This document shows, piece after piece, positions 5,643-54,525 of a stretch of DNA of 64,000 bases. Source of the stretch: a virus (lineage: Duplodnaviria; Caudoviricetes). The position numbers and the translations under genes were made by a program. Position 1 is the stretch's first letter. Every line of letters begins with the position of its first letter. The notes below the pieces were generated by a model. The model was not told the origin of the DNA. It did no database searches and saw nothing but the letters and a program-made list of their open reading frames with translations. The stretch is from positions 3,043 through 67,042 of IMG/VR virus record IMGVR_UViG_3300032292_000722. One strand, 5' to 3'.

Positions 5643-6113
5643 TTATTTGTATGGAGAATAGTGTGGTTTTCCATCAACTCTAGTCGCCTTTAAAATTTGT
5701 TTTCTTTGCTTACCGGTACTTTCATAAGAAACATGAACCCAATCTGGGTTTTCATTGGTACCAAATTCCCAAATTAATTGGTCAAATTCTAAATTATCCT
5801 TGATGTAATTAAATACCATTTTATTGGTAACCCCATTTGCACTACCATCCATATCAATATCAATAGCCTCACCTGTGCTATGCTGTGATGTGGGTGATGC
5901 CCCTTTCGTGCAAGCATTAAGTTCTTTAGACCTATATCCCGAACTGATGTGAATAGGACAACGAAAATTGTTTCTTATTTTTTCAAATACATTTTCTGCT
6001 AACAATTTAAAGTTAGCTATATGTTCCTCTGTTGGCATGTTTGATATGCCTTGACGCTTGGCAGTTTCGCTACGAATTACTTCTGCTAAGTCTAAGTGTT
6101 CTGAAAGTTTCAT
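5643..6113 (-). CDS. Endolysin, peptidase M15 family
   Basis: SSGYRS..LN, SQH..GEAIDID, WVHVS motifs. Confidence 0.85.
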   Translation of the reverse strand: MKLSEHLDLAEVIRSETAKRQGISNMPTEEHIANFKLLAENVFEKIRNNFRCPIHISSGYRSKELNACTKGASPTSQHSTGEAIDIDMDGSANGVTNKMVFNYIKDNLEFDQLIWEFGTNENPDWVHVSYESTGKQRKQILKATRVDGKPHYSPYK

Positions 6114-7675: not shown

Positions 7676-7900
7676 TTATATTGTCCACTTTTTTTCCGGA
7701 CAAGCGTCTGCTCCTACCGGTGAGAACACCTTGGCGCTCGTAGTACATCCACATTTGCCACAATAATCGCGTATAGTAGATTGCACCCAAAACTCACAAT
7801 TAGTACATATTCCAAGCCTTTGTTCAGCTATTATCTTTTGCTCTTCTGTTGGATTAAAAGCAGTCGCATAGGATATTAAAATTTCTTTTAGTTTGTTCAT
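7676..7900 (-). CDS. Small Cys-rich metal-binding protein
   Basis: CTNC...CGKCGC...CPEKKW. Confidence 0.7.
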   Translation of the reverse strand: MNKLKEILISYATAFNPTEEQKIIAEQRLGICTNCEFWVQSTIRDYCGKCGCTTSAKVFSPVGADACPEKKWTI

Positions 7901-8688
7901 TTTTTAAAGTATTTTTTATAGTAGTTTTCGTTAAATTTGAAAGCATTTATATTAATGTACTTGTAATATTTATCGTAGGTATCTTCTAATTCTTTTGATG
8001 TTATTGGTTTTAATGGTTCTGTTGGAATATCGCCTGATGCTTTTTTATGGTTTTCAAAATTGTCTGGATTGTCTATATCACCACTTTGTTTATGCCCAGC
8101 TACCTCTGATGGGTCGCCCCAATTAAAGCAATAAGATGGCAAATAATCTTTATTATGCTCATCTAACTGACCTTCATCTCTTAGCTTAGTGTACCAACTT
8201 AAACCTTCAAATCCTGTTTTATCCACTCTAAAGCCTATCTCCCTTATTTTATCCATTTTAATAATAACGCTAGCTTCCATTGTATTCATTACCAATTCAA
8301 GCTTATCTTGTGTAGCAAAAAAGCTCATCTCTGGCTTCCACGCATCTTTACCATTAGCCTCTATGCCATCTACTGCTTGTTGCAAATGCCATGGAAGGTA
8401 AATATCATCATCATCTGCTAGCATAAAATAATCACCCGTAGCATGAGTAACTGCATCTCTACATATTTGCCCGCGATTCTCGTATGGATTACCGGTTAGA
8501 TAGTCTATATCATTATTAATTATAATTACTGCTGGGTCTTGAAAAGCTAATTCATACGGATTTTCTTTATCAGTATTAAATATTATTAACTCTTTATTTG
8601 GATATGTCTGAGCATAAAACTGTGATAATATTCTTCTCACGCAATAATACCTTCTGTAGCTAGTACAAACAAAACTTACTTTTTTCAT
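7897..8688 (-). CDS. Glycosyltransferase family 2
   Basis: VSFVCTSY.R...ELIIFNTD...YFMLADDDDIY GT-A motifs. Confidence 0.85.
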   Translation of the reverse strand: MKKVSFVCTSYRRYYCVRRILSQFYAQTYPNKELIIFNTDKENPYELAFQDPAVIIINNDIDYLTGNPYENRGQICRDAVTHATGDYFMLADDDDIYLPWHLQQAVDGIEANGKDAWKPEMSFFATQDKLELVMNTMEASVIIKMDKIREIGFRVDKTGFEGLSWYTKLRDEGQLDEHNKDYLPSYCFNWGDPSEVAGHKQSGDIDNPDNFENHKKASGDIPTEPLKPITSKELEDTYDKYYKYININAFKFNENYYKKYFKK

Positions 8689-10139
8689 TAATTGTTTTTT
8701 ATATTAAATGGATAAAAATTAAGGTCATGGTTTTCATAATTTGCATTAGGAAAATCTATGCCTTCTATTGGTAAAGAAATATGGTTTAATCCGACTACTC
8801 GACAATCTTTTCTTAAATATGTTAACTCTAAAGTATTTGGATAATTGTTTTCGCCAATTGGTATAAAACTATGGCAATTATTATTTTCATGAACATGAAC
8901 AATATGGTGCGTTTTACTTAAATTTTTAAGACCTTCCAAAACTGCTGGGTTGGTAAATATATCATGCACTTCAATAACAATTTGTTTTATATTATTTAAA
9001 TAATTTACAAATTCAGAACTTAATAGATTCCATTCCCCTCCTTCTATGTCTAATTTTAAAAATATATTTTTGTAATTTTGTACATATTCTAATAAATTAT
9101 TTGTACTATCAATGTTTTTATTAATATAAATCATTTTATCTGGGAAACAAATATGATTAAAATTTTCAGAATCAAAGATTACGCCATTTATATTATATTT
9201 TTTCATAAAATCATATTCAAAAGAAATATCTGGACCAACCCCTCCTGATATTATAAAGTCATAATCATATCCATCAACAATAACATAACCACCATCCCTA
9301 TTAACACCTAGTCTAGTTTTAGCATTAACTGGATTGTGCATTATTAAATTTTCAAGTATAGCTAAATCATTTTTATTTATATGCGTTCTTATTTTTTCAT
9401 AAAAATAAATCATCTTAACATTTTCTTTATTATAATGAAATGGCGCTGTAAAACTACTTGCCCAGCCTCCATGATACCCATAACAATAATAAAATATAAG
9501 TTTTTTATTTAAATTATTATTCATTGCGCCAGCTAGATGTGATGTCCCAGTATCACCGCCTATGTAATATTCGCAATCTGCTAGATGTTGTAAATTATCT
9601 TTGAAATCATTTGATATTTTAAACCCATTTATTGAAATATTTTCTGGCAAATAATCTTTTATACAAATATATTTTTCATAATCATTAAATTTTTCGCTTG
9701 AATAATCATTAATAATATCTTGTAAAAGTTCGTTAGAGAAGTTTCTTTCTGTATTATAATGAGCATCTATTAATGGGAATATACATATTTTTTTCTTTAA
9801 ATTATAATTTGAAGACATCTCAATTAAATCAAAATGATTTTCTCTAAAACTCCAAATTTCAACAAACCCTGCAAAGTCATAATTACCAATACTTTTGGAA
9901 ATATAATCCGAATTTTCCATTATAAAATCTCTAAATATTCTTACATAATCTTTATCATTTTGCAAAGCTGAATCAGGAACGTAAAACTTTATATTTGGAT
10001 TATTATTGACTTTTCTCATATACGCCAATACATTTAATGTTGCAATTAAATCACCCATTTTTAACAAGCCACCAAACTGATGACCTTTTATATTAATAAC
10101 AACATCGCCATCCTTATATAATTCATTTACTAATGACAT
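8688..10139 (-). CDS. Fusion of a GT9-like glycosyltransferase and an FkbM/Methyltransf_22-like methyltransferase
   Basis: N-half MGDLI...YIGGDTGTSHLA (GT9 signature); C-half RLG...DGGY, SGGVG.DISFE, LKLDIEGGEW. Confidence 0.7.
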   Translation of the reverse strand: MSLVNELYKDGDVVINIKGHQFGGLLKMGDLIATLNVLAYMRKVNNNPNIKFYVPDSALQNDKDYVRIFRDFIMENSDYISKSIGNYDFAGFVEIWSFRENHFDLIEMSSNYNLKKKICIFPLIDAHYNTERNFSNELLQDIINDYSSEKFNDYEKYICIKDYLPENISINGFKISNDFKDNLQHLADCEYYIGGDTGTSHLAGAMNNNLNKKLIFYYCYGYHGGWASSFTAPFHYNKENVKMIYFYEKIRTHINKNDLAILENLIMHNPVNAKTRLGVNRDGGYVIVDGYDYDFIISGGVGPDISFEYDFMKKYNINGVIFDSENFNHICFPDKMIYINKNIDSTNNLLEYVQNYKNIFLKLDIEGGEWNLLSSEFVNYLNNIKQIVIEVHDIFTNPAVLEGLKNLSKTHHIVHVHENNNCHSFIPIGENNYPNTLELTYLRKDCRVVGLNHISLPIEGIDFPNANYENHDLNFYPFNIKNN

Positions 10140-10141
10140 AA

Positions 10142-10789
10142 CTATAGCCCTTTATAATTTGTATTTATTTCTAATAAATCTTGTTTTTCTTTTAGCCATG
10201 TTGCTGACCCATGATGCCAAGCAAAATCTCTTAATTCTTGTAATGAGGCATTTGATTCAATATTTAATTTTTTTAATTTATTATGAACTATTGTATCGTC
10301 AAAATCAATTGTACAATCTAAGCCTATATATTCTTTTAAATATTTACTAAAAAAATTAGGTCCAAGCCATGTATAGGAAATATTATTATAAATATGTTCT
10401 AACATAGGATGATTTTTTTTAAAACCAAATAATGAGTGGCAAATGGTTGGGTCATTATCCCAATGATTAAGATGTATATAGCCGTCTTTGTCATCTAATT
10501 TTAACTCAGAAAATGGCTTAAATACTTCATAATCACAATCTACATGCAAACCCCCATATGCATAAATTATATATAATCTCATTACATGCGCTATATTTAC
10601 CCAATCTTTATCTTTTAAAAATTTATTTTTTAATTCTACTAATTTTTCAGGCAATTCTGGTAAATTATCATTATCCCAAAATATATATTCATAATCTGGG
10701 TTCATTTCTTTTACTTTTTGAGAAAGCATTTTATCTCTTTCTGTAATATGATATGGACCAATCCATATTTGATGTATAATTTTTTCCAT
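10142..10789 (-). CDS. GT32 (Och1/Sur1-like) DxD glycosyltransferase
   Basis: KIIHQIWIG...YGGLHVDCD. Confidence 0.8.
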   Translation of the reverse strand: MEKIIHQIWIGPYHITERDKMLSQKVKEMNPDYEYIFWDNDNLPELPEKLVELKNKFLKDKDWVNIAHVMRLYIIYAYGGLHVDCDYEVFKPFSELKLDDKDGYIHLNHWDNDPTICHSLFGFKKNHPMLEHIYNNISYTWLGPNFFSKYLKEYIGLDCTIDFDDTIVHNKLKKLNIESNASLQELRDFAWHHGSATWLKEKQDLLEINTNYKGL

Positions 10790-11718
10790 TATATTAACTT
10801 TGATTTTTTTTCTAGTTTTTGAATAATTTCATAATATTTTTTAGATGCAGTGCCTTCTTTAATTTCCAAATTTTTATTATAAGGAAGTTCATTCATGTAA
10901 AGTGCTTTATAAAATAATCCACCTGCTGCGTCTGTGACCCCAGCGTTGTGGAAGATATTTAATCTATCCCAATCAGCTTCTGTACTTGTTGCCCATGCAA
11001 ATTCTAAATCTGGGTGGCAAATGCTTTCGTAGCCTAATTTCCAGCCATTCCAAAGTACGGCCCACATATCTGAACACCATATTTGTAGTTCATGGTATGA
11101 TGGATTTGCTGCTTTCTTTTCGTTGTTTATGTCGGTAATTTCTTTGAATAATCTTTCGCAATCTTTTTCTACATTAGCCCAAAATTGAGCGTTGATTCCT
11201 TTCATTAAGTATTGAGCGCCTATTGCATTTAGTTCGTTATCTTTTACTAATTGCTTGTCTATGTCTACTATCTCGCACATTTTATCTAATATGTCTTCTC
11301 CTTTGGAAATTATGTAGTCATGTCCTATGTACCATCTGCAATCACTTCCGTACCATTTATTATCTTGAAGATATTGTTCCCAATTTATTGGTTTGGTAAA
11401 TACGATATCGCAGTCATGATAAAGTACGGCTTCATTCTCTATTTCCGGATACTTTGTAAAGTGTTGCTTTAATATGTTGGGACGGATGGAAGAAATGTAA
11501 TGTCTAGTTTCTCTAGTGTCATCATAAAAAAAGAATCTAGCAGGATAGCCATTAGCTAGCTTGCTGTATTCTTCTGGGATTTCGGCGTTCTGCTTCCAAC
11601 AAACAATATCTACTTGGTTAAGATTGATACCCATTTCAATAAAGTTATTCAACATTGTTTCGAGTTGCCAAGAATAATACTTTATTGCGGGCTGAGCGCA
11701 AATAAATCTTAGGTTCAT
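10789..11718 (-). CDS. GT-A glycosyltransferase, resembling HPAT/SERGT protein O-glycosyltransferases
   Basis: IRPNILKQHF...VLYHDCDIVF...WCSDMWAVLWNG; family assignment from recalled motif similarity only. Confidence 0.5.
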   Translation of the reverse strand: MNLRFICAQPAIKYYSWQLETMLNNFIEMGINLNQVDIVCWKQNAEIPEEYSKLANGYPARFFFYDDTRETRHYISSIRPNILKQHFTKYPEIENEAVLYHDCDIVFTKPINWEQYLQDNKWYGSDCRWYIGHDYIISKGEDILDKMCEIVDIDKQLVKDNELNAIGAQYLMKGINAQFWANVEKDCERLFKEITDINNEKKAANPSYHELQIWCSDMWAVLWNGWKLGYESICHPDLEFAWATSTEADWDRLNIFHNAGVTDAAGGLFYKALYMNELPYNKNLEIKEGTASKKYYEIIQKLEKKSKLI

Positions 11719-11729
11719 ACTTTTTTTAG

Positions 11730-11737
11730 CAAAGTTA
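11730..11737 (-). promoter_or_regulatory. -7 box TAACTTTG
   Basis: CAAAGTTA upstream of 11718, next to AATTAAATTAAT. Confidence 0.6.
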
Positions 11738-11756
11738 TTTAATTAAATTAATAAAC

Positions 11757-12134
11757 CTAATATTCTTTGTAAGATTTTTCTTCGGTTAGTTCTGAGCCGT
11801 ACTTGGCGTTGATTTGTTTTTTCATGATGGCTCTGACATCGTTTAATTGGTAAACCTCTCTAGCTAGTTCTACGAACTTTTCTCCAAAGTCTTTTTTGTG
11901 TTCGTGTTCTCTTAGATGGTCTTCTACTGCCCATAGTTTTTTGTTTATGGAGTATAGCTCTTGAACTAAAGGGTCTATTAAAATGACTGAGTGTTTCTTG
12001 TGGAGGGCGTTTTTTACCATTTTCCACTCTTTATCTATGTTTATAAGCTTTTCTGTATCGTGTATTAAAAGCTTTTTTATGGTTAGGATGGTATATTTGT
12101 CCACCACTTCACCGATGCTGACTTCTATTTTCAT
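11757..12134 (-). CDS. DUF6165-like helical protein (glycosyltransferase-associated)
   Basis: IEVSIGEVVDKYTILTIK...LW.VED.LR...F...F.ELAR.VY..ND.R...K..IN...GS...EEKSY. Confidence 0.8.
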   Translation of the reverse strand: MKIEVSIGEVVDKYTILTIKKLLIHDTEKLINIDKEWKMVKNALHKKHSVILIDPLVQELYSINKKLWAVEDHLREHEHKKDFGEKFVELAREVYQLNDVRAIMKKQINAKYGSELTEEKSYKEY

Positions 12135-12138
12135 GGGC

Positions 12139-12146
12139 CAAAGATA
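12139..12146 (-). promoter_or_regulatory. -7 box TATCTTTG, 4 nt before the ATG
   Basis: Minus strand TATCTTTG-GCCC-ATG; divergent intergenic region. Confidence 0.6.
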
Positions 12147-12208
12147 AGATTTTTACCATTAATCATTAATTTAATTAAATTAATTACTACTTTTACAAAA
12201 ATACTACT

Positions 12209-13570
12209 ATGCCTACAAGCTACCCTCTCTACAAAGATTCTGTCCGAAATTGGTTTCTGCAAAATGTCCCCTTAGATACTACTATATTAGATATTGGAGC
12301 AGGATGTGGTACTTATAGTGATTTGATTCGTGGTTATGGTTATAAAATGGATGCAGTAGAAATATGGGAACCATACATAAACCAATATGGGTTAAAGAAT
12401 AAGTATGGGTGGGTTTATGAAGAGAATATCCTTAAAATGCCCTTTGATGTACTTGGAGCCTATGATTTTTATATATTAGGTGATGTTTTGGAACATTTGT
12501 CTGTGGAAGATGCCCAATGGCTTATGAATTTTTTAAAGATAAAAGGTAAACAATATCTTGTTGCTGTTCCTTATGTAATGGAGCAAGGAGAGCATGAAGG
12601 CAATGTCCATGAAACCCATTTACAGCCTGACCTTACGCCTGAAATAATGCTAGAAAGGTATCCTGATTTAGAACTGCTTTATGGCAATAATTATTATGGT
12701 TATTATACAAATAAAAAACAAAAACATGAAAAAGCTTATGTCCTTTATGCTGATGATTCCTATTATGACCTTGTGGATGCTTGTTGTCGTTCCATTAGAA
12801 ATTTTAGTGATTACCCTATATATGTTTATATGCTTAATTCTTCTCAAAAGGTGAATGTGGCAAATACCATTACTAAAAGATGGGATTGTGATGTAATCCA
12901 CTTAAAGAAAAGAAATGACTACATAGATAGAGAAGATAAGCAGATATATAAGCTATTAATTGAAAGACCTAAAATTGTACGAGATGCTTTGAAATATGCT
13001 GAAGTTGTGGCTTATGTGGACACAGATAGTGTAGCTAGCCCATATGTAGATAGAATATTTGATTATTATAATGGCGCAGATATTTATCCGTTCTTTACAG
13101 CTGGTATTTATGATTATCTTATTATTAATGGGCGTGGTGGTGCCGCTAGTAGAGATGAAATGCATACTACTCTTGAGTATGAGGCTTGTAAATTATTTGA
13201 TGTGGACCAAAAAGAATCAAGAGAAAATTATAGGCAAACAGGATATTTTGTTTGTGGTCAAAAGTCTATATGGTTTTTAGATGAATGGGCGTGGATGTGT
13301 AACCACCCTAGAATATTAGAAGATAATGCAAAATACGCGAGCTTCAATGAAGAATCAATCATGAATATTTTACGCTGGAAGTACCGATTCCATAGAGGTA
13401 TGCCATTAGTTTATGTCAATGGATTACGCAAGGGGCTTGAGTTTAAAGGATATGAATACTTTATGGGTGAATGGTTTAAAGTGCCTGCACAAAAAGATGA
13501 TTTACTTTTTTACCATGGAGAAAAAGATATAAATAAGATTAATGAATTTATAGAATATTTAAAATTATAA
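12209..13570 (+). CDS. Class I SAM methyltransferase fused to a GT-A glycosyltransferase
   Basis: ILDIGAGCG, DAVE, LGDVLEHL in N-half; YVDTD DxD motif in C-half. Confidence 0.8.
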   Translation: MPTSYPLYKDSVRNWFLQNVPLDTTILDIGAGCGTYSDLIRGYGYKMDAVEIWEPYINQYGLKNKYGWVYEENILKMPFDVLGAYDFYILGDVLEHLSVEDAQWLMNFLKIKGKQYLVAVPYVMEQGEHEGNVHETHLQPDLTPEIMLERYPDLELLYGNNYYGYYTNKKQKHEKAYVLYADDSYYDLVDACCRSIRNFSDYPIYVYMLNSSQKVNVANTITKRWDCDVIHLKKRNDYIDREDKQIYKLLIERPKIVRDALKYAEVVAYVDTDSVASPYVDRIFDYYNGADIYPFFTAGIYDYLIINGRGGAASRDEMHTTLEYEACKLFDVDQKESRENYRQTGYFVCGQKSIWFLDEWAWMCNHPRILEDNAKYASFNEESIMNILRWKYRFHRGMPLVYVNGLRKGLEFKGYEYFMGEWFKVPAQKDDLLFYHGEKDINKINEFIEYLKL

Positions 13571-13572
13571 TT

Positions 13573-13776
13573 ATGACACCAAAAGAAAAAGCAAAAGAAT
13601 TATTTGATAAATTTTTGATGGAAATTCCAAATAATGAAATGTCATTAGAATATGAAGCATCAAGACAATGTGCATTAATAGCAGCAGATGAAGTAATAAA
13701 TACAATAATGTCAGTATATCAACCTGAAACAAAAGCATTTTGGTTTGAAGTTAAACAAGAAATAGAAGCATTATGA
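13573..13776 (+). CDS. Conserved Bacteroidota phage small protein
   Basis: MTPKEKAKEL...W.EVKQEIE pattern. Confidence 0.75.
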   Translation: MTPKEKAKELFDKFLMEIPNNEMSLEYEASRQCALIAADEVINTIMSVYQPETKAFWFEVKQEIEAL

Positions 13777-15809
13777 AGATAGTTTATTTAGCTCCTCACC
13801 TCAGCACAGGTGGATGCCCACAATTTATTTTAAAGCGTATTCAATCTTTGCTTACACATACCGAAGGGAATGAGGTTTATGTCGTTGAGTATAGTTATCA
13901 TGGTGATGCTTATGTGGTACAAAGAAATGCCATAAAGCAATTGCTTGGTAAGAATTTTGGCGCACATTTTAGTACAAAAGTAGAAATTGCAGATTATATA
14001 GGTCTTATCAATCCTGATATAATTCATATAGATGAAATGTCTGAAAGATTAGACCAACATTTGATGAAAGCTTTGTATAAAAATGATAGAAAATGGTATA
14101 TCATTGAAACTTGTCATGATATTTCGTTTGTCCCAAGTACAAAGGTTTTTCACCCAGATTTGTTTATGTTCTGTAGCCCTTACCATGAAGATACATTTGC
14201 TGATTTGGAAAGTTTGTATGAAACAATAGAATACCCTGTTGATTTTAAAGTTATTGGTGGCAAAGAAAAGATTAAAGCTAAGATGCAATTAGGAATGGAC
14301 TTGAACAAAAAACATATTCTTAATGTTGGTTTATGGACTAAAGGTAAAAACCAAGGTGAGATGCTTGAGATAGCTAAAAAATATCCAGAAATGATGTTTC
14401 ATTCAGTAGGTAATCAAGCAGGTAATTTTGCAGATTATTGGCAGCCACTTATGGAAGATGTCCCACCTAATGTTAAGATATGGGGTGAGAGAGCAGATGT
14501 GGAATTGTTTATGACTGCGGCGGATGTTTTTATGTTTAATTCTACTTGGGAATGTAACCCATTAGTTTTGCGTGAAGCTATGGCGCATACGCTACCGATA
14601 GTGGCTAGAAACTTACCACAATATGGCGATATGTTTACCAAATACCTAGACCCTATTGATACAGATTTAAGAACTATTACTAGAAAATATAAAACTTCTA
14701 ACGATAAAAATTCAAGAGCATTTGCCTTAAAGCATGAAAAAGCTTATAAGGAACTTATGAAGGTGCCAATTAGAAAACAGCAAGTATCTATCACGCAACA
14801 CTTTGTCAATCAGCCATTCTTAGAGATTAAAGGTAATAGTGAGAGTGATTTTTTAGTTCAATTTTTAGACGAAAAAGGTAGTATATATTACCAAAATACG
14901 ATAAAAGCAAACCATTGGGTACGATTAAATAGGCAGTGGTACACAAAATGGAGGACAAAAGTTTTCGAGGGGAAAGACTTGATTTACAATAGTACCATGG
15001 ACTTGGAAGGTAAAAAAGTTTTTATAGCTATTGATAGCCGTAGTTTGGGTGATACGCTTGCATTTATTCCTTATTGTGAGGCGTTTAGGATAAAGCATAA
15101 TTGTGATGTGATTGTGTCGACTTTTTGGAATAAAATACTAGATTATCCCGATTTGGAGTTTGTAGAGCCGGGGACGATGGTTAATTGTTACGCTATGTAC
15201 ATGTTGGGTTATTTCCATGATTCTGATAAAGAACCAGTACCTGCAAATAAAGTTCCACTACAACAATGCGCCTCGAACGTTTTAGGGCTAGATTTTGAGG
15301 AGTTGGTACCAAGAGTAAGGGTGAACAGAGAAAGGCTGGATTTGGGCAGATATGTGACAATAGCGACTAATTCTACAGCACAATGCAAGTTTTGGACAAG
15401 GAGCGGATGGCAAACCGTTATAAATTACCTCCATTCTAAAGGGTATAGGGTAATCAATGTTTCCAAAGAAGCTAACCCATTTGATAATTGTGAACCTATA
15501 GCCGATACTTCAATTGAATATACCATGCAAGTAATTGCAGGGGCTGACTTTATGATTGGTTTGAGTTCAGGGCTTAGCTGGGCAGCCTTTGCTATTGGTA
15601 CCCATGTCGTGCTAATATCGAACTTTACAGCATCAGACTATGAATTCACTACAAAATGTACAAGGATTGTAAATACGAAGGTATGTCATGATTGTTGGTC
15701 AGAGCATAAGCTAGATTCTGCAAACTGGAATTGGTGTCCGCGAAACCAAAATTTCATTTGCCAAACGAGTATCACACCCGAAATGGTTATTCAGCAATTG
15801 CCTCTGTAA
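13773..15809 (+). CDS. GT4 glycosyltransferase fused to an Aah/TibC-like autotransporter O-heptosyltransferase domain
   Basis: N: PHLSTGG, GLWTKGKNQ, FNSTWECNPLVLRE; C: SRSLGDTLA, STAQCKFW, GLSSGLSW, CHDCW...WCPR...C Cys cluster. Confidence 0.8.
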   Translation: MKIVYLAPHLSTGGCPQFILKRIQSLLTHTEGNEVYVVEYSYHGDAYVVQRNAIKQLLGKNFGAHFSTKVEIADYIGLINPDIIHIDEMSERLDQHLMKALYKNDRKWYIIETCHDISFVPSTKVFHPDLFMFCSPYHEDTFADLESLYETIEYPVDFKVIGGKEKIKAKMQLGMDLNKKHILNVGLWTKGKNQGEMLEIAKKYPEMMFHSVGNQAGNFADYWQPLMEDVPPNVKIWGERADVELFMTAADVFMFNSTWECNPLVLREAMAHTLPIVARNLPQYGDMFTKYLDPIDTDLRTITRKYKTSNDKNSRAFALKHEKAYKELMKVPIRKQQVSITQHFVNQPFLEIKGNSESDFLVQFLDEKGSIYYQNTIKANHWVRLNRQWYTKWRTKVFEGKDLIYNSTMDLEGKKVFIAIDSRSLGDTLAFIPYCEAFRIKHNCDVIVSTFWNKILDYPDLEFVEPGTMVNCYAMYMLGYFHDSDKEPVPANKVPLQQCASNVLGLDFEELVPRVRVNRERLDLGRYVTIATNSTAQCKFWTRSGWQTVINYLHSKGYRVINVSKEANPFDNCEPIADTSIEYTMQVIAGADFMIGLSSGLSWAAFAIGTHVVLISNFTASDYEFTTKCTRIVNTKVCHDCWSEHKLDSANWNWCPRNQNFICQTSITPEMVIQQLPL

Positions 15810-16017: not shown

Positions 16018-17445
16018 CTACAACCCTGCTTTGTTTAATCTTTCATTTAATTCTTGAATAGATTTTAATGGTTCTACAATTACCTTGCCATTATCATATG
16101 TTATATCTGTATTCATCATAAATTCATCTTTTCTTTCACCTATAACCATCCAAGATATTTCATCTGCTGAATTTGTATTTTGACTTTCTATGTAAATAAT
16201 ATTACCAATAACTTTCCCTTTTACTAAATCCCATCCGCTTTCATTTGTAGTAAAACATTGTACTTCTCTACATAATGCTTCAAAAGTACCATTAGTCATT
16301 GTAGATACTTCATCTATGTTAGCTTCTGCTTTACCATTTACTAAAGTAAGTTTGCCTCTATAAATCAAATCTGCTTGAGGTGATTCAACACTAATATGAC
16401 GCAAATTATGCGTTTCTTTTAAATTTGGAAGGGGATGTTGTATTAAAAATGGTTTTGTACCAGCAGATAAAACTCCTTCAACTGATAAATTTCCTAAACC
16501 AGTTAACAATGTAGCTATTTTTAATGTATCATTAGTAAGTGCATATATACATACATTTGCAGTTGTATAAGGGAATATAAATTTTCCAGAATCATTAATT
16601 CTTATTCTTTCTGCTAAAGCATTTGCTGATGCACCATTTGGTTTTGTCCAAAAACTTAAAAATCCACCATATAATCCAGCATCTGTTAATTGTATTCTTG
16701 CTTGAGGATAGGTAAACGCACTTCCATACCCAACCATATCTATTTTAACTCCATTATTTGAAGTTAATCCTAATGTAGATTCTGATGCTCCTGAATTTAT
16801 TGTTAATTTATAATCTGGAGTAATTGAACCAAGATTTGTATTTCCATCTCCTCTAATACTAAAATATGTAGTATTATTAGCAGCATTATTTACTCTAAAT
16901 GCTACATCTCCTGTTGTAGTACCCCCTCTAACTATTGCACCATAAGAAGAGCCAGATGTTGTATTTGCCCAAAAACTACCAGCCCAGTTTGCAGCTGTAC
17001 CAGTTACACTTAATTGGTCGCCTGTAGGAGTCATATTAATACCAATCGTACCAGTAGATTTAATAATCATTCTACCTGTATTATCTGTAGCTAATACAAA
17101 GTCAGTTGTATTAGCCGTTCCAATTGTACCATTATATGCACCTCCATTACCACTGCCCCATATAGTCCCTGTAGAACTAGCTACTGCAATGTTTAAATTA
17201 CCGCCAGTATTTATTATTTCAGCATATTGGTAACCTGTTGTAGCTCCTGTTGAACTAAATATTTTACCATTATTAGCACTTGTAAATGTAGTTTGACCAC
17301 TAACCAATAATGTACTACTAACCTTAGCTGTACCAGTTACTTCTAATTTATAACTACCACTAGGTGCTGCTCCTATTCCTACGTTGTTAGATGCGTCAGT
17401 TAGTATTGCTAAAGGAATTGTCCCTAATTTTTGTGTAAGCCCCAT
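16018..17445 (-). CDS. Tail fibre / receptor-binding protein 3
   Basis: NVGIG, RMII...G.IGI fibre repeats; C-terminal KPFLIQHP...RHISVESP..D.IYRG chaperone-like domain. Confidence 0.75.
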   Translation of the reverse strand: MGLTQKLGTIPLAILTDASNNVGIGAAPSGSYKLEVTGTAKVSSTLLVSGQTTFTSANNGKIFSSTGATTGYQYAEIINTGGNLNIAVASSTGTIWGSGNGGAYNGTIGTANTTDFVLATDNTGRMIIKSTGTIGINMTPTGDQLSVTGTAANWAGSFWANTTSGSSYGAIVRGGTTTGDVAFRVNNAANNTTYFSIRGDGNTNLGSITPDYKLTINSGASESTLGLTSNNGVKIDMVGYGSAFTYPQARIQLTDAGLYGGFLSFWTKPNGASANALAERIRINDSGKFIFPYTTANVCIYALTNDTLKIATLLTGLGNLSVEGVLSAGTKPFLIQHPLPNLKETHNLRHISVESPQADLIYRGKLTLVNGKAEANIDEVSTMTNGTFEALCREVQCFTTNESGWDLVKGKVIGNIIYIESQNTNSADEISWMVIGERKDEFMMNTDITYDNGKVIVEPLKSIQELNERLNKAGL

Positions 17446-17476: not shown

Positions 17477-17637
17477 TTCTAGTTTGATTAATCTATTTTG
17501 TTATAGGTTTGGTTTAATTACCATTTTTTTGTTATTTCATCATCAATTTTAATCTGTATAAATATTACTATTATAAAAAATAGTATTAATAGTATTGCTG
17601 ACATAATTTATTTGTTTTCTAGTTTGATTAATCTATT
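17477..17637. repeat. 21-bp direct repeat TTCTAGTTTGATTAATCTATT (17477-97, 17617-37)
   Basis: Second copy encodes the fibre-2 C-terminus (NRLIKLE); first copy is an orphan duplicate 140 bp away. Confidence 0.85.
17518..17604 (-). CDS. 28-aa transmembrane microprotein
   Basis: MSAILLILFFIIVIFIQIKIDDEITKKW; ATG 3 nt after the fibre-2 stop. Confidence 0.45.
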   Translation of the reverse strand: MSAILLILFFIIVIFIQIKIDDEITKKW

Positions 17638-18735
17638 AGATAGTTCTTCGTTTTTAACTGATAGTTCTTGAATAGCCTTAGTTAATAAAGCAATCATATG
17701 TGGATACCCAATAGCATCTGGAGTGCCATCTACTGCATATTGAACAAATTCTGTTAAACCTAAATCGTGTAAATCTTCGGCTATTAAACCAGCAAATTGA
17801 ATACCATATTCTTTTTCATTTTTACTTTTATAATAAACTGGTCTTAATTTCATTACTTCAATTAAGCCTTTGTCATAATCTATTATATCAGTTTTATATT
17901 TTAATGAGGAAATTGCTCTACCAAATGAACCATCACTATTTATATAACCATTTGCAGCAGCTGAAAATTGATTATTATAAGTTGGTGGTGAAAATAAATA
18001 TCCATCACCTCTTACAATAAAATAAGATGTATTATTTGCTCCGTTTGCTATTTGAAAACAATAGTCGCCACTTCCATTTCCTGCTAATATCTTTAAACCA
18101 TAAGAATTACCATTACCTGTATTTGCATTTCTAATAATCATTCCCCAATCTGCAACAGGTGCTAAATATGTATTGATTTGTCCATTTGATTCAACAGTCA
18201 TTCTTACATCGTAATTTGAACCTGTACCAAATCTAACTTGTGATATTGCACCTAATCTTAATTTAGCACTTGAACCACCTGTTGCTAAAATGTCATTGTT
18301 TTCATTTCTTGTAAAAAACATTTCAGCACCACTTGATGTTAATTGAAAATTTCCTAAAGAACCAGCTAATTCAAATCTATAGGCAGGACTACTTGTACCA
18401 ATACCTACATTACCTGATGAGGTTATGGTCATTCTTCTTGAACCTCCAGCACCAAATACTAAATTACCAGAGGCATTATTATTCCAAATTGATATACAAC
18501 CTGCATCTCTACCATCATAACCAATATCTCCTACTTGAGTACCTGCCGAGTTTCTAAATGCTATATAATTATCTACACCTGTTGGAGTTAATCTTAATAC
18601 TTCTCCACTTCCAGTAATAGTTGTAGTAGAACCATCATCTTGTATTAAGCTATTGCCTATGGTTGTACCTGTGGCTTTGAGAATATAATTGGTAGTGGTC
18701 AGTGGCGCAGTAGCCAAAATTGTGTTTAAACTCAT
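17608..18735 (-). CDS. Tail fibre 2 with peptidase S74 intramolecular chaperone
   Basis: GNVGIGT repeats; SSLKYKTDI...LRPVYY...GLIAEDL...LTKAIQEL. Confidence 0.85.
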   Translation of the reverse strand: MSLNTILATAPLTTTNYILKATGTTIGNSLIQDDGSTTTITGSGEVLRLTPTGVDNYIAFRNSAGTQVGDIGYDGRDAGCISIWNNNASGNLVFGAGGSRRMTITSSGNVGIGTSSPAYRFELAGSLGNFQLTSSGAEMFFTRNENNDILATGGSSAKLRLGAISQVRFGTGSNYDVRMTVESNGQINTYLAPVADWGMIIRNANTGNGNSYGLKILAGNGSGDYCFQIANGANNTSYFIVRGDGYLFSPPTYNNQFSAAANGYINSDGSFGRAISSLKYKTDIIDYDKGLIEVMKLRPVYYKSKNEKEYGIQFAGLIAEDLHDLGLTEFVQYAVDGTPDAIGYPHMIALLTKAIQELSVKNEELSNRLIKLENK

Positions 18736-18747
18736 CGTGTTTTATAT

Positions 18748-21700
18748 TTATTTTGTAGCTACAATTTTTTCTAATTCAATTATTTTGGTATTCATCTCTT
18801 GAATAGCTTTTACTAATACAGGAACTATTAATGAATAATCTACTCCTTGCATTCTTTCGCCATCCTTTTCTCCAACAACTGCATAAGGTATAATCTCTTG
18901 TAATTCGTGTGCAATTACACCATCCATTCTATGTTCAGTATTCTTAAATTTAAAATCATAAACTTTAATAGCAGAAATCTTTTCTAAACCTTTTATATCT
19001 TTGAAATCTTCTTTAATTCTATAATCAGAAGAAGTTGCATAAGTAGTATTTACTCCATTATTTGATGTTATACTACCTGTATCAGATGCACCTGCTGTAA
19101 ATAAATGATAGTAATAAGTACCACCATTACTTATTCCAACTGATTTAAAACAAAAACCACCGCTAACTGTTTGTTGTACTAAAACTCCATCTTGATTGGT
19201 TGTAGTAATTTGCATTCTAGCATTTTCACCACCTGATGCAGTTCTATTAATAAATACAAGACCTCCACTTGTAATAGCCATTTTTTGACTTCCATCTATA
19301 AACCATCTATACCCTAAAGTATTTGAATTATGAAAACATAAATCACCAGAAGCAATAATTGTATTTACACCTATTGTATGTTCATAAGCAGTACCAAAAA
19401 TGCCTGCTATTTTTAATCCACAATCCTCACTTCCTACATTATTTTTTATTCTAACAAATACATTATTTGAAGTAGGACTTGTATTTTGGATATCTACTGA
19501 TAGTGTTGAATCAACAGCTGCTGTACCAATTCCAAGCTGACCAGAACTAGTAATACGCATTCTTTCTGCAGGTCCTACTGCTGATTTATATGTTCCGAAG
19601 GTTAGTGCTACATCATAACCTCCAGCTGATGTTTCTGTCGCAATAGTTGCTGCATTATCCCCAATTCCAAAGTTGGCATTAGGAGCGAATGTAATTTGAG
19701 AACCTGTACCTGAAGCATTTGTATTTTGAATAAATAAAGGCTTAGATGTCCCAGCAACTGAGCTAACTAAATTTAACAAAGCAGTTGGACTTGTAGTTCC
19801 AATTCCCACATTTGTACCATTATCATAAATCAAACTATTACCAATTGCAGAGCTTGAGCTAAACTTAGCTACATAATTTGTTGTTCCACTACCACCAATT
19901 CCACTATAAGCTCCTACTGAATAAGAGTAAGCATAAACTACTACTATATCATTTAATTGACAAGCTGTTGCTAATATTATACTTGTACCATTGGTCGCAG
20001 TATATTCACTTTGAGCTAGATTTGAACCATTATAAAACACATCTATTAATCCTTGAGTATAACTAACACTAAATGTAGTTTGTGCAGCTGTCGCAGTAAA
20101 AGTAGTTATAGTTCTTAATGCGTTTGTTGGTAAATATGCCGTTAATAAATTATCAATCTCAACAATGTTACCAGCCGCCAAACCCGCTGCCATAACCACT
20201 GTTGTACCATCTGTCGCAGTAAAATCAGTACCATTAACAAACTTAACTCCATTCACAAACACATCTACCATTCCAAGATTGTAACCATTGGTAACAGTAA
20301 AAGTTGTTTGACCCGAAGTCGATGTAAAAGTCTGAACCGCTCTCGCTGATGTTGTTGAATTACCGCTTGTTCCTGAAGACCCTGATGTACCCGTTGAACC
20401 TGATGTGGCTGAAGTTCCAGAAGTACCTGTAGTACCCGATGTACCCGAAGTAGCTGACGTACCTGAAGTTCCCGTAGTACCCGCCGTTCCTGACGAACCC
20501 GATGTACCTGTAGTACCCGCCGTACCCGAAGTTCCTGACGAACCCGCTGAACCGCTTGAACCCGTTCCACCACTTGTTCCCGAAGAACCCGATGTACCAT
20601 CTGAACCAGACAAACCTGAAGACCCTGTTCCACCACTTGTTCCCGAGCTACCACTAGACCCTGATGTACCAGATGTTGTACCTACTGCTACACCAATTTG
20701 TTTTATGTTGGTAATTATTGAAGGAGCTGCTGGTATTGTTCCTGTTGCAGCTACTGCTGTTACTTGTACATCAGATGCATTTGCTTGAAAATAAACTTCA
20801 TAATAATCATTAGCATTTGCACTATCAATAATAGAAACGAATGGTAACTGCTTTGCACTTTGGCTTCTTAAACCTAAGATAGAATCAGTTCTAATAATAT
20901 TAGTACCATTTTTCCTTAACCAAATATTAACATCTGCACCTCCACCACCTGTATGTTCAATTTGTAATGAATATGCTATTTCATAGATACCAGTATGTTG
21001 AACAGTAATCTGTGAACCACTGAAAACAATACCATTACTATATTCATCATTTGTGTATGTGATTGCTGTTGGCGTATTTGCCGCTGTAACCACTTGAGTA
21101 GCTGTACTTGTAAACGCACCATACCAGTTAGCAATAGAAGCTCCTGATGAACCATCGATACCATTACGACCAGTAGTTCCTGAAGTACCCGATGTAGCTG
21201 ATGAACCCGAAGTTCCTGTCGTTCCCGATGAACCCGAAGTTCCTGTTGTTCCCGAAGTTGCCGAAGTTCCTGAGCTACCGCTTGACCCTGATGAGCCTGA
21301 CGTACCAGTCGTTCCCGATGTACCCGTAGTACCCGATGTACCCGAAGACCCTGTAGTTCCCGATGTTCCCGCTGTAGCAGAAGTACCTGAAGTACCTGAG
21401 CTACCATCTCCTCCACTTGCACCATCTAAGTTAACAGACCAAGCAGAATAAGTTCCGCTACCTACTGTTCTAGTTGGAGCTGCGAATGATAAAGAACCTG
21501 TTGCTGGATTATAAGCTGTAACCTCACACTCTTGGAAGTTGGTTGCGTCATAAACCACAATGATAGATTGAGCTACTGTATATGCTAATTGAGTACCTAC
21601 AGTTAAAGTTCCTGCATTACCCAATGTAAATGTTGTCGATGAAGTTGTGGCGTATCTGTCACCTTGTAAACCGCTTGTACCCGATGTTCCTGATGTTGCA

Positions 21701-22305
21701 GATGTTCCCGAAGTACCTGTCGTTCCCGATGTCGCTGAAGTCCCTGAGCTGCCTGATGTCCCCGAAGTTCCTGTTGTACCCGCAGTCCCTGAAGAACCCG
21801 CTGTGCCTGAAGTTCCCGTAGTACCCGAAGTCGCAGATGTGCCTGAAGAACCTGCCGTACCCGATGTTCCCGAAGTACCTGAAGTTCCCCCTGTACCATC
21901 TGTGGCTGATGTACCCGAAGTACCTGAAGTACCCGCTGTTGCCGATGTGCCTGAAGTTCCTGAAGAACCTGTTGTACCCGATGTTCCCGTTGTACCCGCC
22001 GTTCCAGAAGTGCCTGAAGTTCCTGCTGTCCCATCAGTTGCTGATGTACCCGATGTTCCTGATGAACCCGTTGTACCCGAAGTGCCTGAGCTGCCCGATG
22101 TACCTGTCGTTCCAGAGCTGCCCGAAGTTCCTGAAGTACCCGATGTACCCGATGTCGCTGATGTTCCCGAAGAACCAGAAGAGCCTGCCGTTCCAGAACT
22201 ACCTGATGAGAAGCTCGTAGCGGTTACAATACCATCAGTGGCTACAAGGACGCCATTAAGACCTCTTACCTTTAAATCGCCTGAAATTAATCCTTGTATT
22301 GCCAT
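18748..22305 (-). CDS. Long tail fibre 1 with Gly-Thr-Ser repeats and S74 chaperone
   Basis: Three (G-T/S-S/T)n blocks, GQTTF repeats, NVGIGT, SSDYRIKED...GVIAHELQE. Confidence 0.85.
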   Translation of the reverse strand: MAIQGLISGDLKVRGLNGVLVATDGIVTATSFSSGSSGTAGSSGSSGTSATSGTSGTSGTSGSSGTTGTSGSSGTSGTTGSSGTSGTSATDGTAGTSGTSGTAGTTGTSGTTGSSGTSGTSATAGTSGTSGTSATDGTGGTSGTSGTSGTAGSSGTSATSGTTGTSGTAGSSGTAGTTGTSGTSGSSGTSATSGTTGTSGTSATSGTSGTSGLQGDRYATTSSTTFTLGNAGTLTVGTQLAYTVAQSIIVVYDATNFQECEVTAYNPATGSLSFAAPTRTVGSGTYSAWSVNLDGASGGDGSSGTSGTSATAGTSGTTGSSGTSGTTGTSGTTGTSGSSGSSGSSGTSATSGTTGTSGSSGTTGTSGSSATSGTSGTTGRNGIDGSSGASIANWYGAFTSTATQVVTAANTPTAITYTNDEYSNGIVFSGSQITVQHTGIYEIAYSLQIEHTGGGGADVNIWLRKNGTNIIRTDSILGLRSQSAKQLPFVSIIDSANANDYYEVYFQANASDVQVTAVAATGTIPAAPSIITNIKQIGVAVGTTSGTSGSSGSSGTSGGTGSSGLSGSDGTSGSSGTSGGTGSSGSAGSSGTSGTAGTTGTSGSSGTAGTTGTSGTSATSGTSGTTGTSGTSATSGSTGTSGSSGTSGNSTTSARAVQTFTSTSGQTTFTVTNGYNLGMVDVFVNGVKFVNGTDFTATDGTTVVMAAGLAAGNIVEIDNLLTAYLPTNALRTITTFTATAAQTTFSVSYTQGLIDVFYNGSNLAQSEYTATNGTSIILATACQLNDIVVVYAYSYSVGAYSGIGGSGTTNYVAKFSSSSAIGNSLIYDNGTNVGIGTTSPTALLNLVSSVAGTSKPLFIQNTNASGTGSQITFAPNANFGIGDNAATIATETSAGGYDVALTFGTYKSAVGPAERMRITSSGQLGIGTAAVDSTLSVDIQNTSPTSNNVFVRIKNNVGSEDCGLKIAGIFGTAYEHTIGVNTIIASGDLCFHNSNTLGYRWFIDGSQKMAITSGGLVFINRTASGGENARMQITTTNQDGVLVQQTVSGGFCFKSVGISNGGTYYYHLFTAGASDTGSITSNNGVNTTYATSSDYRIKEDFKDIKGLEKISAIKVYDFKFKNTEHRMDGVIAHELQEIIPYAVVGEKDGERMQGVDYSLIVPVLVKAIQEMNTKIIELEKIVATK
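20350..22210 (-). repeat. Three blocks of degenerate 9-bp-period repeats encoding Gly-X-Y (about 20350-20680, 21130-21420, 21670-22210)
   Basis: Gly at every third residue, X/Y mostly Thr/Ser; synonymous codon variation. Confidence 0.85.
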
Positions 22306-35437: not shown

Positions 35438-37615
<2,178 letters not shown>

Positions 37616-48080: not shown

Positions 48081-48485
48081 TTAAGGTGCTGCTGTTGTTG
48101 TGGTAGTAGGCGCTGCCGTTGTCGTTGTTGTTGTATTACCTTGTAATAACAAATATTTACCAATAATACCAAATTCAACAATACCAGCTGCTGCAATAGA
48201 TGAAACATCTGTTTTTGTTGATAAATTTACCCCTAAAACTGTAACCCAGTTAATTGGAACTTCTGGCGCAGGTGATAATTGCCCTGTAATAGAACCATCA
48301 TCGTTAGTAGTGCTGAAACTAACTGTTCCAGATGTACCCACAAATTGTACTACCGCAGAATCCCATCCAGATAAATCTTGGTAAAAATTATTATTAGCAT
48401 TAAAAGAATCTGTTGCATCTACAACTGTGCTAATTTTTGAACTAAATTTCTGTAGTCTTATTAAAAGTTTACTTACCGTTGCCAT
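48081..48485 (-). CDS. Beta-sandwich virion protein with a TTTTAAP tail
   Basis: C-terminus GNTTTTTTAAPTTTTTAAP. Confidence 0.7.
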   Translation of the reverse strand: MATVSKLLIRLQKFSSKISTVVDATDSFNANNNFYQDLSGWDSAVVQFVGTSGTVSFSTTNDDGSITGQLSPAPEVPINWVTVLGVNLSTKTDVSSIAAAGIVEFGIIGKYLLLQGNTTTTTTAAPTTTTTAAP

Positions 48486-54177: not shown

Positions 54178-54525
54178 ATGGCAAATCACTTATCGGTTTA
54201 TGTTTATCGTAGAAATCAATACGACTTAAACAACCCAAACGGTACACCTGCGACATCTGGTGTATTATTCTCACTACCTACGGTTGGCTTACAAGTTCAA
54301 CCTACTACTGTGGTAGCAAATGGAGTACAAATGAATTCATTAATTCTTATGTACCCTAGTGGTCTTAATCAACCAGCTGAAAAATTATATAGTGCTGCAA
54401 CAGTTGCACAGATAATTACAGCTATTAATGGTGGTGGTATTGTTACAACTACAACTACTACAGCAGCACCAACTACAACAACCACTGCAGCTCCAACAAC
54501 AACAACCACAACTGCAGCACCTTAA
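54178..54525 (+). CDS. Putative capsid decoration protein with mucin tail (paralogue A)
   Basis: RNQY...NGTPATSG...VANGV.MNS...P.GLNQ followed by (TTTTTAAP)x3. Confidence 0.7.
   Translation: MANHLSVYVYRRNQYDLNNPNGTPATSGVLFSLPTVGLQVQPTTVVANGVQMNSLILMYPSGLNQPAEKLYSAATVAQIITAINGGGIVTTTTTTAAPTTTTTAAPTTTTTTAAP

Follow-up and report, generated by a model that had tools for sequence, protein, structure and literature searches.

The closest described counterparts of the system reported here are the TibC-TibA and Aah-AIDA-I pairs of Escherichia coli, in which a soluble cytoplasmic enzyme of the bacterial autotransporter heptosyltransferase (BAHT) family (TIGR04414; PDB 4RAP/4RB4) hyperglycosylates a repetitive protein, an autotransporter beta-helix, encoded next to it. 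Those TibC-family members that have been characterised are glycosyltransferases (GTs) acting on proteins; in the TibC structure Asp-110 is the catalytic base, Thr-226, Lys-230 and Trp-305 contact the sugar, Cys-339, 342, 358 and 370 form an iron finger, Arg-286 makes a hydrogen bond to the adenine N1 that accounts for the ADP-sugar (ADP-heptose) donor, and a beta-hairpin thumb with a hydrophobic tip (Phe-265/Val-266) is required for the dodecamer and for activity (PMC4358343). Here we analysed a stretch of 64,000 nucleotides (hereafter the window), bases 3043-67042 of the 67,042-bp IMG/VR virus record IMGVR_UViG_3300032292_000722, which has inverted terminal repeats and is rated 100% complete. 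Its source is an uncultured freshwater phage of 67 kb, and it carries an enzyme island of about 8 kb (window positions 7897-15809) encoding a protein with a TibC-like domain and a second transferase, which we call p309. We consider it likely that these enzymes form a phage-encoded cytoplasmic system of protein O-glycosylation with two enzyme-acceptor pairs, directed at structural proteins of the phage itself: the TibC-like domain would act on Gly-Thr-Ser collagen-like repeats and p309 on poly-Thr tracts. An earlier sequence-only reading of this stretch had proposed virion self-glycosylation by one system matched to all of these repeats; its open reading frame (ORF) coordinates were confirmed for 7897-15809.

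Phages that glycosylate their own particles have been described in one other setting relevant here: according to Freeman et al. (2023, Cell Host Microbe), as cited in PMC12619734 and PMC10877033, mycobacteriophages, among them Che8, Corndog and Myrna, modify the C-termini of capsid and tail-tube proteins with phage-encoded enzymes. As far as the citing papers convey it, the two systems are alike in that phage transferases act on the phage's own structural proteins, and the mycobacteriophage C-terminal acceptor tails resemble the Thr tails of a 134-aa and a 115-aa protein encoded in the window. They differ in enzyme families, acceptor motifs, habitat and host phylum (here probably Bacteroidota), and the mycobacteriophage glycosylation was shown experimentally, whereas the system described here is read from genes.

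The 678-aa product of the gene at 13773-15809 (+ strand) is a fusion of a GT4 domain (about residues 90-330, with the Pfam GT4 match at residues 170-290) and a TibC/Aah-type protein O-glycosyltransferase domain; besides GT4, Pfam finds GT9 in this protein. Residues 359-675 score 217.6 bits against TIGR04414, the Aah/TibC equivalog of NCBIfam (cutoff 200), and the protein aligns with TibC (PDB 4rap) at an E-value of 8e-41. A putative catalytic Asp (~427), Lys (~539), Trp (~603) and iron-finger Cys (~638, 641, 655, 663) were located. To place the domain, a tree of 97 domains was built (a quick IQ-TREE search, with a midpoint root for drawing only), which resolves two BAHT clades with 100% SH-aLRT support on both sides. 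Clade I contains all 17 phage enzymes and all 22 bacterial enzymes that lie beside a repeat gene, while clade II, which has no repeat-adjacent member, contains Aah together with enterobacterial, Burkholderia, Lentisphaerota and Bacillota enzymes. Both clades keep the catalytic Asp, Lys-230, Trp-305 and the four iron-finger Cys without exception, the Thr-226 equivalent is kept in 46 of 47 clade-I sequences, that of the window included, and the iron finger (C-x2-C ... WCP ... C) is kept, with a last loop four residues shorter in the window protein. The enzyme is of the same sequence family as TibC and Aah, and we regard it as a true relative that probably works in the manner of TibC, with the predicted task of hyperglycosylating Ser/Thr of a long repetitive protein in the cytoplasm. 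It differs from them in belonging to a separate clade with a shortened thumb (median 41 residues in clade I versus 50 in clade II, that is, 9-10 residues shorter) and a mostly lost Arg-286, in being fused to GT4 (in other phages also to a GT-A domain and a methyltransferase), and in its partner, a Thr/Ser-rich collagen-like repeat instead of an autotransporter beta-helix: no clade-I locus scored as autotransporter-linked and the island's neighbours are collagen-like fibre genes, whereas Aah adjoins AIDA-I.

The proposed acceptor in this genome is a 1185-aa fibre (18748-22305, - strand) with six collagen-like G-[TS]-[STA] segments (Pfam Collagen, PF01391, 1.2e-38 over six stretches) and a C-terminal Peptidase_S74 chaperone. 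Its triplets are Thr/Ser-rich, as described for this fibre beforehand, and proline-free. The neighbouring gene (17608-18735, - strand) encodes a tail-fibre-like protein that also ends in an S74 chaperone (Pfam PF13884) and matches many tail-fibre PHROGs, so the island does adjoin tail-fibre genes. The collagen-like repeats have a GC content of 0.45 (window 20001-22000) against about 0.32 elsewhere, and the triplets show regular Gly-to-Ala breaks (GTSATSGTS), which may mark designed helix kinks. Glycosylated collagen-like proteins are known from Bacillus, where BclA has GXT repeats with O-glycans, and from mimivirus. Like the fibre proposed here, these are Thr-containing Gly-X-Y surface filaments with heavy O-glycosylation; they differ in using other transferases, and the fibre in the window is proline-free and belongs to a phage tail.

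To assess whether enzyme and repeat occur together, related loci were compared. A downstream flank of 6 kb or more was available for 44 of them, and 40 of these 44 encode a Gly-X-Y fibre rich in Thr and Ser, always convergent with the gene of the TibC-like enzyme and a median of 2.6 kb away; Thr fills 60-90% of the X positions in the triplets and Ser 55-75% of the Y positions. In the reverse test, viral contigs were fetched by a (GTS)4 DNA pattern and matched control contigs by (Gly-Pro-X)5 (GPx). Most of the pattern-fetched records are fragments. The TibC-like domain was present in 17/79 (GTS)4 whole records and in 1/48 (GPx)5 controls (p 0.0015); the 17 domains are 36-58% identical, in ORFs of 388-1449 residues, and lie within 15 kb of the (GTS)4 site in 13 records and adjacent to it in three. 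Counted within the fetched loci only, the domain occurs in 10/120 GTS versus 0/117 GPx loci. A pairing of the TibC-like enzyme with the TTTTTAAP tracts was considered as well and rejected (5/48 Thr-tract records versus controls, p 0.2).

The same pairing is found in bacterial chromosomes. A profile scan of bacterial genomes returned 432 TibC-like relatives, where a single-protein scan had found none, and 79 were kept. A Thr/Ser-rich Gly-X-Y gene stands beside the enzyme in 22 of these 79 cases (within 178 bp in 15), and the repeat-adjacent enzymes are 22/30 in clade I versus 0/49 in clade II, the autotransporter clade (p 3e-13). Many of the bacterial partners are small lipoproteins with a signal peptide, a lipobox Cys, a (GTS)n stretch and an acidic tail. 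In Methylobacter luteus IMV-B-3098 (L525:6869-9071) the two genes form an isolated cassette, flanked by queA/mfd and housekeeping genes, with the layout of aah-aidA. Cassettes of a phage-type TibC-like enzyme and a small (GTS)n collagen-like protein, secreted or a lipoprotein and often acidic at its tail, were also seen at L523, L524, L527, L531, L534-L537, L539, L540, L542-L544 and L547. These cassettes seem to represent a glycoprotein system of bacteria that has so far escaped description, and they occur in culturable strains.

The second pair involves p309 (10789-11718, - strand; 309 aa), a member of the phrog_4417 family (1.9e-68) and the candidate poly-Thr transferase. No Pfam or NCBIfam match was found for it at E <= 0.01, Pfam GT8 included, its alignment profile found nothing among PDB sequences, and its 2374 homologues are all unnamed, none with a Pfam domain. 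Single-sequence PDB searches with the 309-aa protein, and with a 453-aa and a 483-aa protein of the island, gave noise only, and alignment profiles and structure models were needed; p309 and the 453-aa protein (MT453) were aligned with homologues from related phage loci (30 sequences for p309) and then folded with AlphaFold2 (AF2). The p309 model, with a predicted local distance difference test (pLDDT) score of 95, has a GT-A fold in which D102xD104 and H257 are invariant in the 30 sequences. In VIA-align it matches glycogenin (Z 14.0), the Skp1 alpha-galactosyltransferase (13.8), the UGGT catalytic domain (13.6), LgtC (13.3) and GlyE (12.4); of its best matches, glycogenin, the Skp1 enzyme and GlyE, several act on cytoplasmic proteins. 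The relationship to these retaining GT8 enzymes is one of fold only, at 5-12% identity. The streptococcal serine-rich repeat adhesins, glycosylated by GtfA/B and then by GT8 enzymes such as GlyE (PDB 5gvv), likewise offer a hydroxyl-rich low-complexity repeat as acceptor, made of Ser-rich repeats where the putative acceptor of p309 is poly-Thr. The sequence-only reading had called p309 HPAT-like. The model has a GT-A fold, but the searches made here lend the HPAT label no support: the best solved matches are GT8-type, no chain of the plant enzymes HPAT (GT95) or SGT1 (GT96) was among the Foldseek/VIA-align matches to solved structures, and no Pfam match to them was obtained at E <= 0.01. What would be common to p309 and the plant enzymes is the proposed logic, a GT-A enzyme starting O-glycans on extended hydroxyl-rich peptides.

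Thr tracts occur, as had been noted, in four ORFs of the window. The 725-aa protein (35438-37615, - strand; no family match), encoded in the structural module, has a beads-on-a-string arrangement of Cys modules joined by (T5-8 xAP) linkers, and the 1363-aa virion structural protein (37641-41732, - strand; phrog_14478, 1e-57) has Thr-tract linkers at about residues 1169-1197. The two small proteins carry the tracts as C-terminal tails: T6AAPT5AAP in the 134-aa protein encoded beside the portal gene (48081-48485, - strand) and (T5-6AAP)x3 in the 115-aa protein (54178-54525, + strand). Like the G-[TS]-[STA] repeats, the Thr tracts are patterns far above chance, and the tails recur with variable length in related phages, in 39/63 homologues of the 134-aa and 55/77 of the 115-aa protein.

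For the co-occurrence test of this pair, viral contigs were fetched by the pattern T6AAPT3, leaving out obvious members of the window's own clade. The p309 profile was present in 22/48 of the T6AAPT3 whole records versus 0/48 GPx controls (p 2e-8), and, within the fetched loci, in 33/118 Thr-tract loci versus 0/120 GTS and 0/117 GPx loci (0/237 controls). The tract ORF and p309 share a strand in all 33 loci; in 32 of them the two are adjacent genes no more than 1 kb apart, and the gap has a median of 27 bp. These neighbouring tract ORFs range from 67 to 1106 residues and belong to 11 unrelated families, one of which starts with a major tail protein domain. Within the window's own clade (records whose terminase is 81-99% identical), p309 and T6 tracts are both present in 14 records and both absent from four, two 100%-complete genomes among these; one record (77% complete) has tracts without p309 and none has p309 without tracts (hypergeometric p ~0.001). 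The TibC gene is present in 13/13 complete genomes of the clade, the tract-less ones included.

Several observations concern the small ORFs around p309 in relatives, where families ending in T7AAPT7-type tails lie beside p309 or beside the GT4-TibC gene. One, of 67-87 aa (...KAYVRFDGSGR..., then ECCN and a T7AAPT7-type tail), is encoded just downstream of p309 in a group of 90-120-kb phages; another (MKTI...YAWDWVA.QLNLTI.GDYVPP, then T8) is encoded between GT4-TibC and the fibre gene. Small Thr-tailed ORFs stand beside p309 at L021, L023, L025, L029, L033, L037-L039, L041 and L048, and further at L056, L058, L060, L062, L065, L068, L072, L073 and L075. Such families near p309 or GT4-TibC could be minimal natural substrates. 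In the record behind L395 the p309 homologue (G191:C1:2753-3679) has one in-frame TGA, for which a pseudogene, a sequencing error or recoding are all possible.

These counts give a clearly positive outcome for both pairs to the comparison that the sequence-only reading had suggested, namely co-occurrence of GT genes with Thr/Ser-repeat structural genes across related phages, and they support its idea of virion self-glycosylation; the single system matched to all repeats gives way to two separate enzyme-acceptor pairings. Within the clade p309 tracks the Thr tracts and TibC persists in tract-less genomes, and this double dissociation is the strongest argument for a separate match between each enzyme and one type of repeat.

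MT453 (12209-13570, + strand; 453 aa) combines an N-terminal S-adenosylmethionine-dependent methyltransferase, solidly identified by its profile match to PDB 3cc8 (4e-8), with a C-terminal GT-A domain recognised in the AF2 model (pLDDT 89), of GT6/GT8-like fold and with D271xD273 invariant in the alignment of homologues from related phage loci. A multidomain protein of this kind is A064R of chlorovirus PBCV-1, with two GT domains and a methyltransferase. PBCV-1 resembles the proposed system in that virus-encoded cytoplasmic GT and methyltransferase activities build and methylate the glycans of virion proteins, and the GT-A domain of A64R (PDB 2p6w) matches p309 structurally (Z 10.9); it differs in being a eukaryotic virus with N-linked glycans on its major capsid protein, and the relationship is one of fold only. 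The DUF6165 protein (11757-12134, - strand; 125 aa) matches Pfam PF19662 with 40.5 bits, in agreement with the earlier annotation. A 67-aa ORF (13573-13776, + strand; phrog_21441, 2.8e-11) lies between the two large enzyme genes, and a 475-aa protein (16018-17445, - strand; phrog_28536, 1e-7) is encoded between the enzyme and fibre genes. Three accessory genes complete the island, all on the - strand: a GT2-family glycosyltransferase (7897-8688, 263 aa; Pfam PF00535, 33.3 bits against a cutoff of 23), a GT32-type glycosyltransferase with a DXD sugar-binding region (10142-10789, 215 aa; Pfam PF04488, 38.5 bits) and a tentative fusion of a GT9-like domain with an FkbM-type methyltransferase (8688-10139, 483 aa). 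The last scores 0.86 in Atlas against clusters of viral GT9+FkbM proteins and has a GT9-type motif, GGDTGTSHLAGA, in its N-terminal part; its GT9-like label stays tentative because BLASTP against the TibC domain is not significant (E 0.77), and its FkbM match (E 0.007) is below the cutoff. Thus, of the seven GT domains claimed for the island, six are well supported (GT2, GT32-type, two GT-A, GT4 and TibC/Aah-type) and the GT9-like one is tentative, and of the two methyltransferases that of MT453 stands while the FkbM part is weak. The nine island proteins, all taken to be soluble, are free of membrane segments and signal peptides.

The complete GT4-TibC fusion is present in at least 189 viral contigs. 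In 80 fetched loci carrying it, MT453 was found in 67, p309 in 43 and DUF6165 in 39, whereas GT2 was found in three and neither the GT32-type gene nor that of the 483-aa protein in any; the island is therefore a conserved core with lineage-variable accessory enzymes. Across many phages MT453 is commonly one chain with GT4-TibC (~1130-1180 aa), and this joining of GT4, TibC-like, GT-A and methyltransferase domains argues that they act on one substrate. In relatives, Pfam scans of the slot occupied here by the accessory GTs revealed GT2, a C5 cytosine DNA methylase (L015:4509-5897), a GH19-like (chitinase class I) protein (L006:4619-5215) and unknown genes, with no clear pattern; this region is a general cargo hotspot. 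Within the window's own clade (records behind L002-L015 and L319-L397) the TibC-like domain is 53-96% identical where the terminase is 81-99% identical, so the TibC-like gene evolves or is exchanged at about the pace of a fibre gene.

Taking these features together, we propose that late in infection the soluble enzymes would act in the cytoplasm on freshly made structural proteins. The TibC-like domain would attach the initial sugar to Ser/Thr residues in the proline-free Gly-Thr-Ser segments of the 1185-aa fibre. The GT4 domain fused to it and the GT-A domain of MT453 would lengthen this glycan, and the methyltransferase of MT453 would probably O-methylate a sugar, both the methyl-capping and its acceptor being conjectural. 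In the second pair, p309 would prime Thr residues of at least four proteins, within their (T5-8 xAP) linkers or their C-terminal tails, and the GT2, GT32-type and GT9/FkbM-like accessories would diversify the glycans. We infer the transfer of sugar itself, the sugars used and the order of the steps, and the benefit may lie in fibre stability, protease resistance, adhesion or masking.

A number of points weigh against this proposal. The evidence for both pairings is genomic throughout, and the 134-aa, 115-aa and 725-aa Thr-tract proteins are putative virion components only. In the window, p309 has the GT32-type gene and DUF6165 as neighbours and no Thr-tract gene. The unit counted in the co-occurrence statistics is the record and not the independent event, habitat and GC content are probably different in the GPx control set, and the enrichment of TibC in GTS over Thr-tract loci is a trend only (p 0.08-0.15). 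The TibC-like enzyme also fails some features of the TibC/Aah group and does not count as a confirmed heptosyltransferase. The Arg-286 equivalent is found in 10/47 clade-I versus 50/50 clade-II sequences and is Thr in the window protein, whose thumb tip aligns to gaps and appears deleted; with these two changes it may depart from TibC in both oligomeric state and donor. Since the Arg that contacts adenine in TibC is lost, heptose is doubtful as the sugar and the donor is probably not ADP-heptose. The ADP-heptose gene gmhA is absent from 41 TibC-carrying phage records, which is uninformative on what the host supplies. Solubility, too, is not decisive, as soluble GTs also build lipid- or nucleotide-linked glycans.

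Two other explanations have to be considered alongside virion glycosylation. The enzymes might remodel the host surface, modifying lipopolysaccharide (LPS), capsule or another envelope glycan to block superinfection or aid progeny release, and their closeness to fibre genes would then only reflect an accessory-gene hotspot. This is the field's default reading for GTs near the fibre genes of aquatic phages (PMC7029224); GT2, GT4, GT9 and GT32 families often build envelope glycans, to whose enzymes the island GTs have weak NCBIfam matches, and the accessory GTs differ between close relatives as serotype-type genes do. Such a role leaves unexplained why the TibC-like clade tracks Thr/Ser Gly-X-Y repeats and not Gly-Pro-X fibres, why the same pairing recurs as a two-gene cassette in bacterial chromosomes, why poly-Thr ORFs from 11 unrelated families have p309 directly beside them on the same strand, and why p309 and the tracts co-vary inside one clade. 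Moreover, the characterised TibC-family members modify proteins (PMC4358343), no membrane-bound Gtr-type component is found among the island proteins, and their lack of membrane segments and signal peptides fits a cytoplasmic modification of phage proteins better than one of the host surface. We therefore regard host-surface remodelling as unlikely for the island as a whole, while the accessory GTs specifically may have such a role. Glycosylation might otherwise concern the DNA, with some or all of the transferases decorating modified phage bases to evade restriction. DNA-decorating phage GTs are well known (reviewed in PMC12619734), and a PAPS-reductase/PP-loop family protein of the window (62973-63821, - strand; 27.5 bits) could be a nucleic-acid modification enzyme. 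Against this, the scan of the proteins turned up neither a hydroxymethylase nor any other partner for base modification, protein acceptors are indicated by the TibC family and by the co-variation with repeats, and the island is located among late, structural genes. We hold DNA hypermodification to be very improbable.

A narrower possibility retains the fibre as the only acceptor. The poly-Thr tracts would be plain flexible linkers, and p309 would act elsewhere, on a growing glycan or a small molecule. The position of p309 away from any Thr-tract gene in this genome agrees with this, as does its fold, which is common to many non-protein GTs such as LgtC and WbbM, and about half of the Thr-tract records are without p309. 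These p309-negative records are, however, mostly small fragments (completeness mostly < 50%), the tract ORF adjoins p309 in all but one of 33 loci, with tract proteins of 11 families, p309 occurs in none of 237 controls, and p309 and the tracts are gained and lost jointly within the clade. A fibre-only system thus seems improbable to us, about as much so as host-surface remodelling, and glycosylation of the phage's own proteins through both pairs remains the reading that we prefer.

The island is flanked by an M15 endolysin gene (5643-6113) on one side and by the tail-fibre genes on the other. A nucleotide search of the island against GenBank phages gave no match. The large terminase and portal proteins have distant counterparts, at 27-29% identity, in Flavobacterium and Cellulophaga podophages, and the two nearest matches of the TibC-like domain in the bacterial database (58% identity) are short contigs of metagenome-assembled genomes assigned to Sediminibacterium and Chitinophaga; on both grounds, the host is probably a freshwater Bacteroidota. 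Other observations were made along the genome and in its relatives. A giant ORF of 2713 aa (24096-32237, - strand) in the structural module has phrog_2563 as its sole family match (residues 965-1088), and its position and size are reminiscent of the virion-packaged giant proteins of crAss-like and Cellulophaga phages. For the PAPS-reductase/PP-loop protein mentioned above, a sulfur-related modification is an equally conceivable function. The record IMGVR_UViG_3300032323_002596 (L331, L333; 59.9 kb), annotated with 'inverted terminal repeats', contains the terminase gene twice in opposite orientations and no TibC gene; an artefact of fold-back during assembly seems a better account of it than genuine repeats at the genome ends.

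To our knowledge, virion glycosylation by phage-encoded enzymes has been shown only in a few mycobacteriophages. Literature searches on Thr-rich phage glycoproteins and on BAHT with collagen-like repeats brought up no paper tying BAHT-type enzymes to such repeats, and none tying a GT family to poly-Thr phage proteins. Beyond this genome it is conceivable, at somewhat less than even odds in our view, that many phages of aquatic habitats, and also some bacteria, have two cytoplasmic pathways of protein O-glycosylation that are new to the literature. In one, a 'thumbless' sister clade of TibC/Aah that has lost the reading of ADP-sugars would hyperglycosylate proline-free Gly-Thr-Ser collagen-like helices, which the sugars may stabilise in place of hydroxyproline; in the other, a GT8-like family would turn poly-Thr linkers into mucin-like stalks. 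What this genome contributes is a small phage that unites the two systems in a single compact island, together with the double-dissociation test and a natural joint gain and loss of p309 and Thr tracts within a clade.

If the two pairings are real, two corrections of annotation would follow: pipelines would call the TibC-like domain an 'autotransporter heptosyltransferase' despite its collagen-like partner and probable non-ADP-heptose donor, and the more than 2300 proteins of the p309 family lack any annotation. If the proposal is true, a phage with both pathways in an 8-kb island and relatives lacking one of them would be a compact test model, and cassettes of the Methylobacter luteus type, with a (GTS)n lipoprotein and a TibC-like enzyme, would offer a culturable system for the chemistry. 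A large share of the 'LPS-modifying auxiliary genes' beside phage fibre genes would then be virion-glycosylation enzymes, and glycosylated fibres and mucin-like linkers would be common in environmental phages, with a bearing on host recognition, particle stability, adhesion to mucus and particles, and the immune recognition of therapeutic phages.

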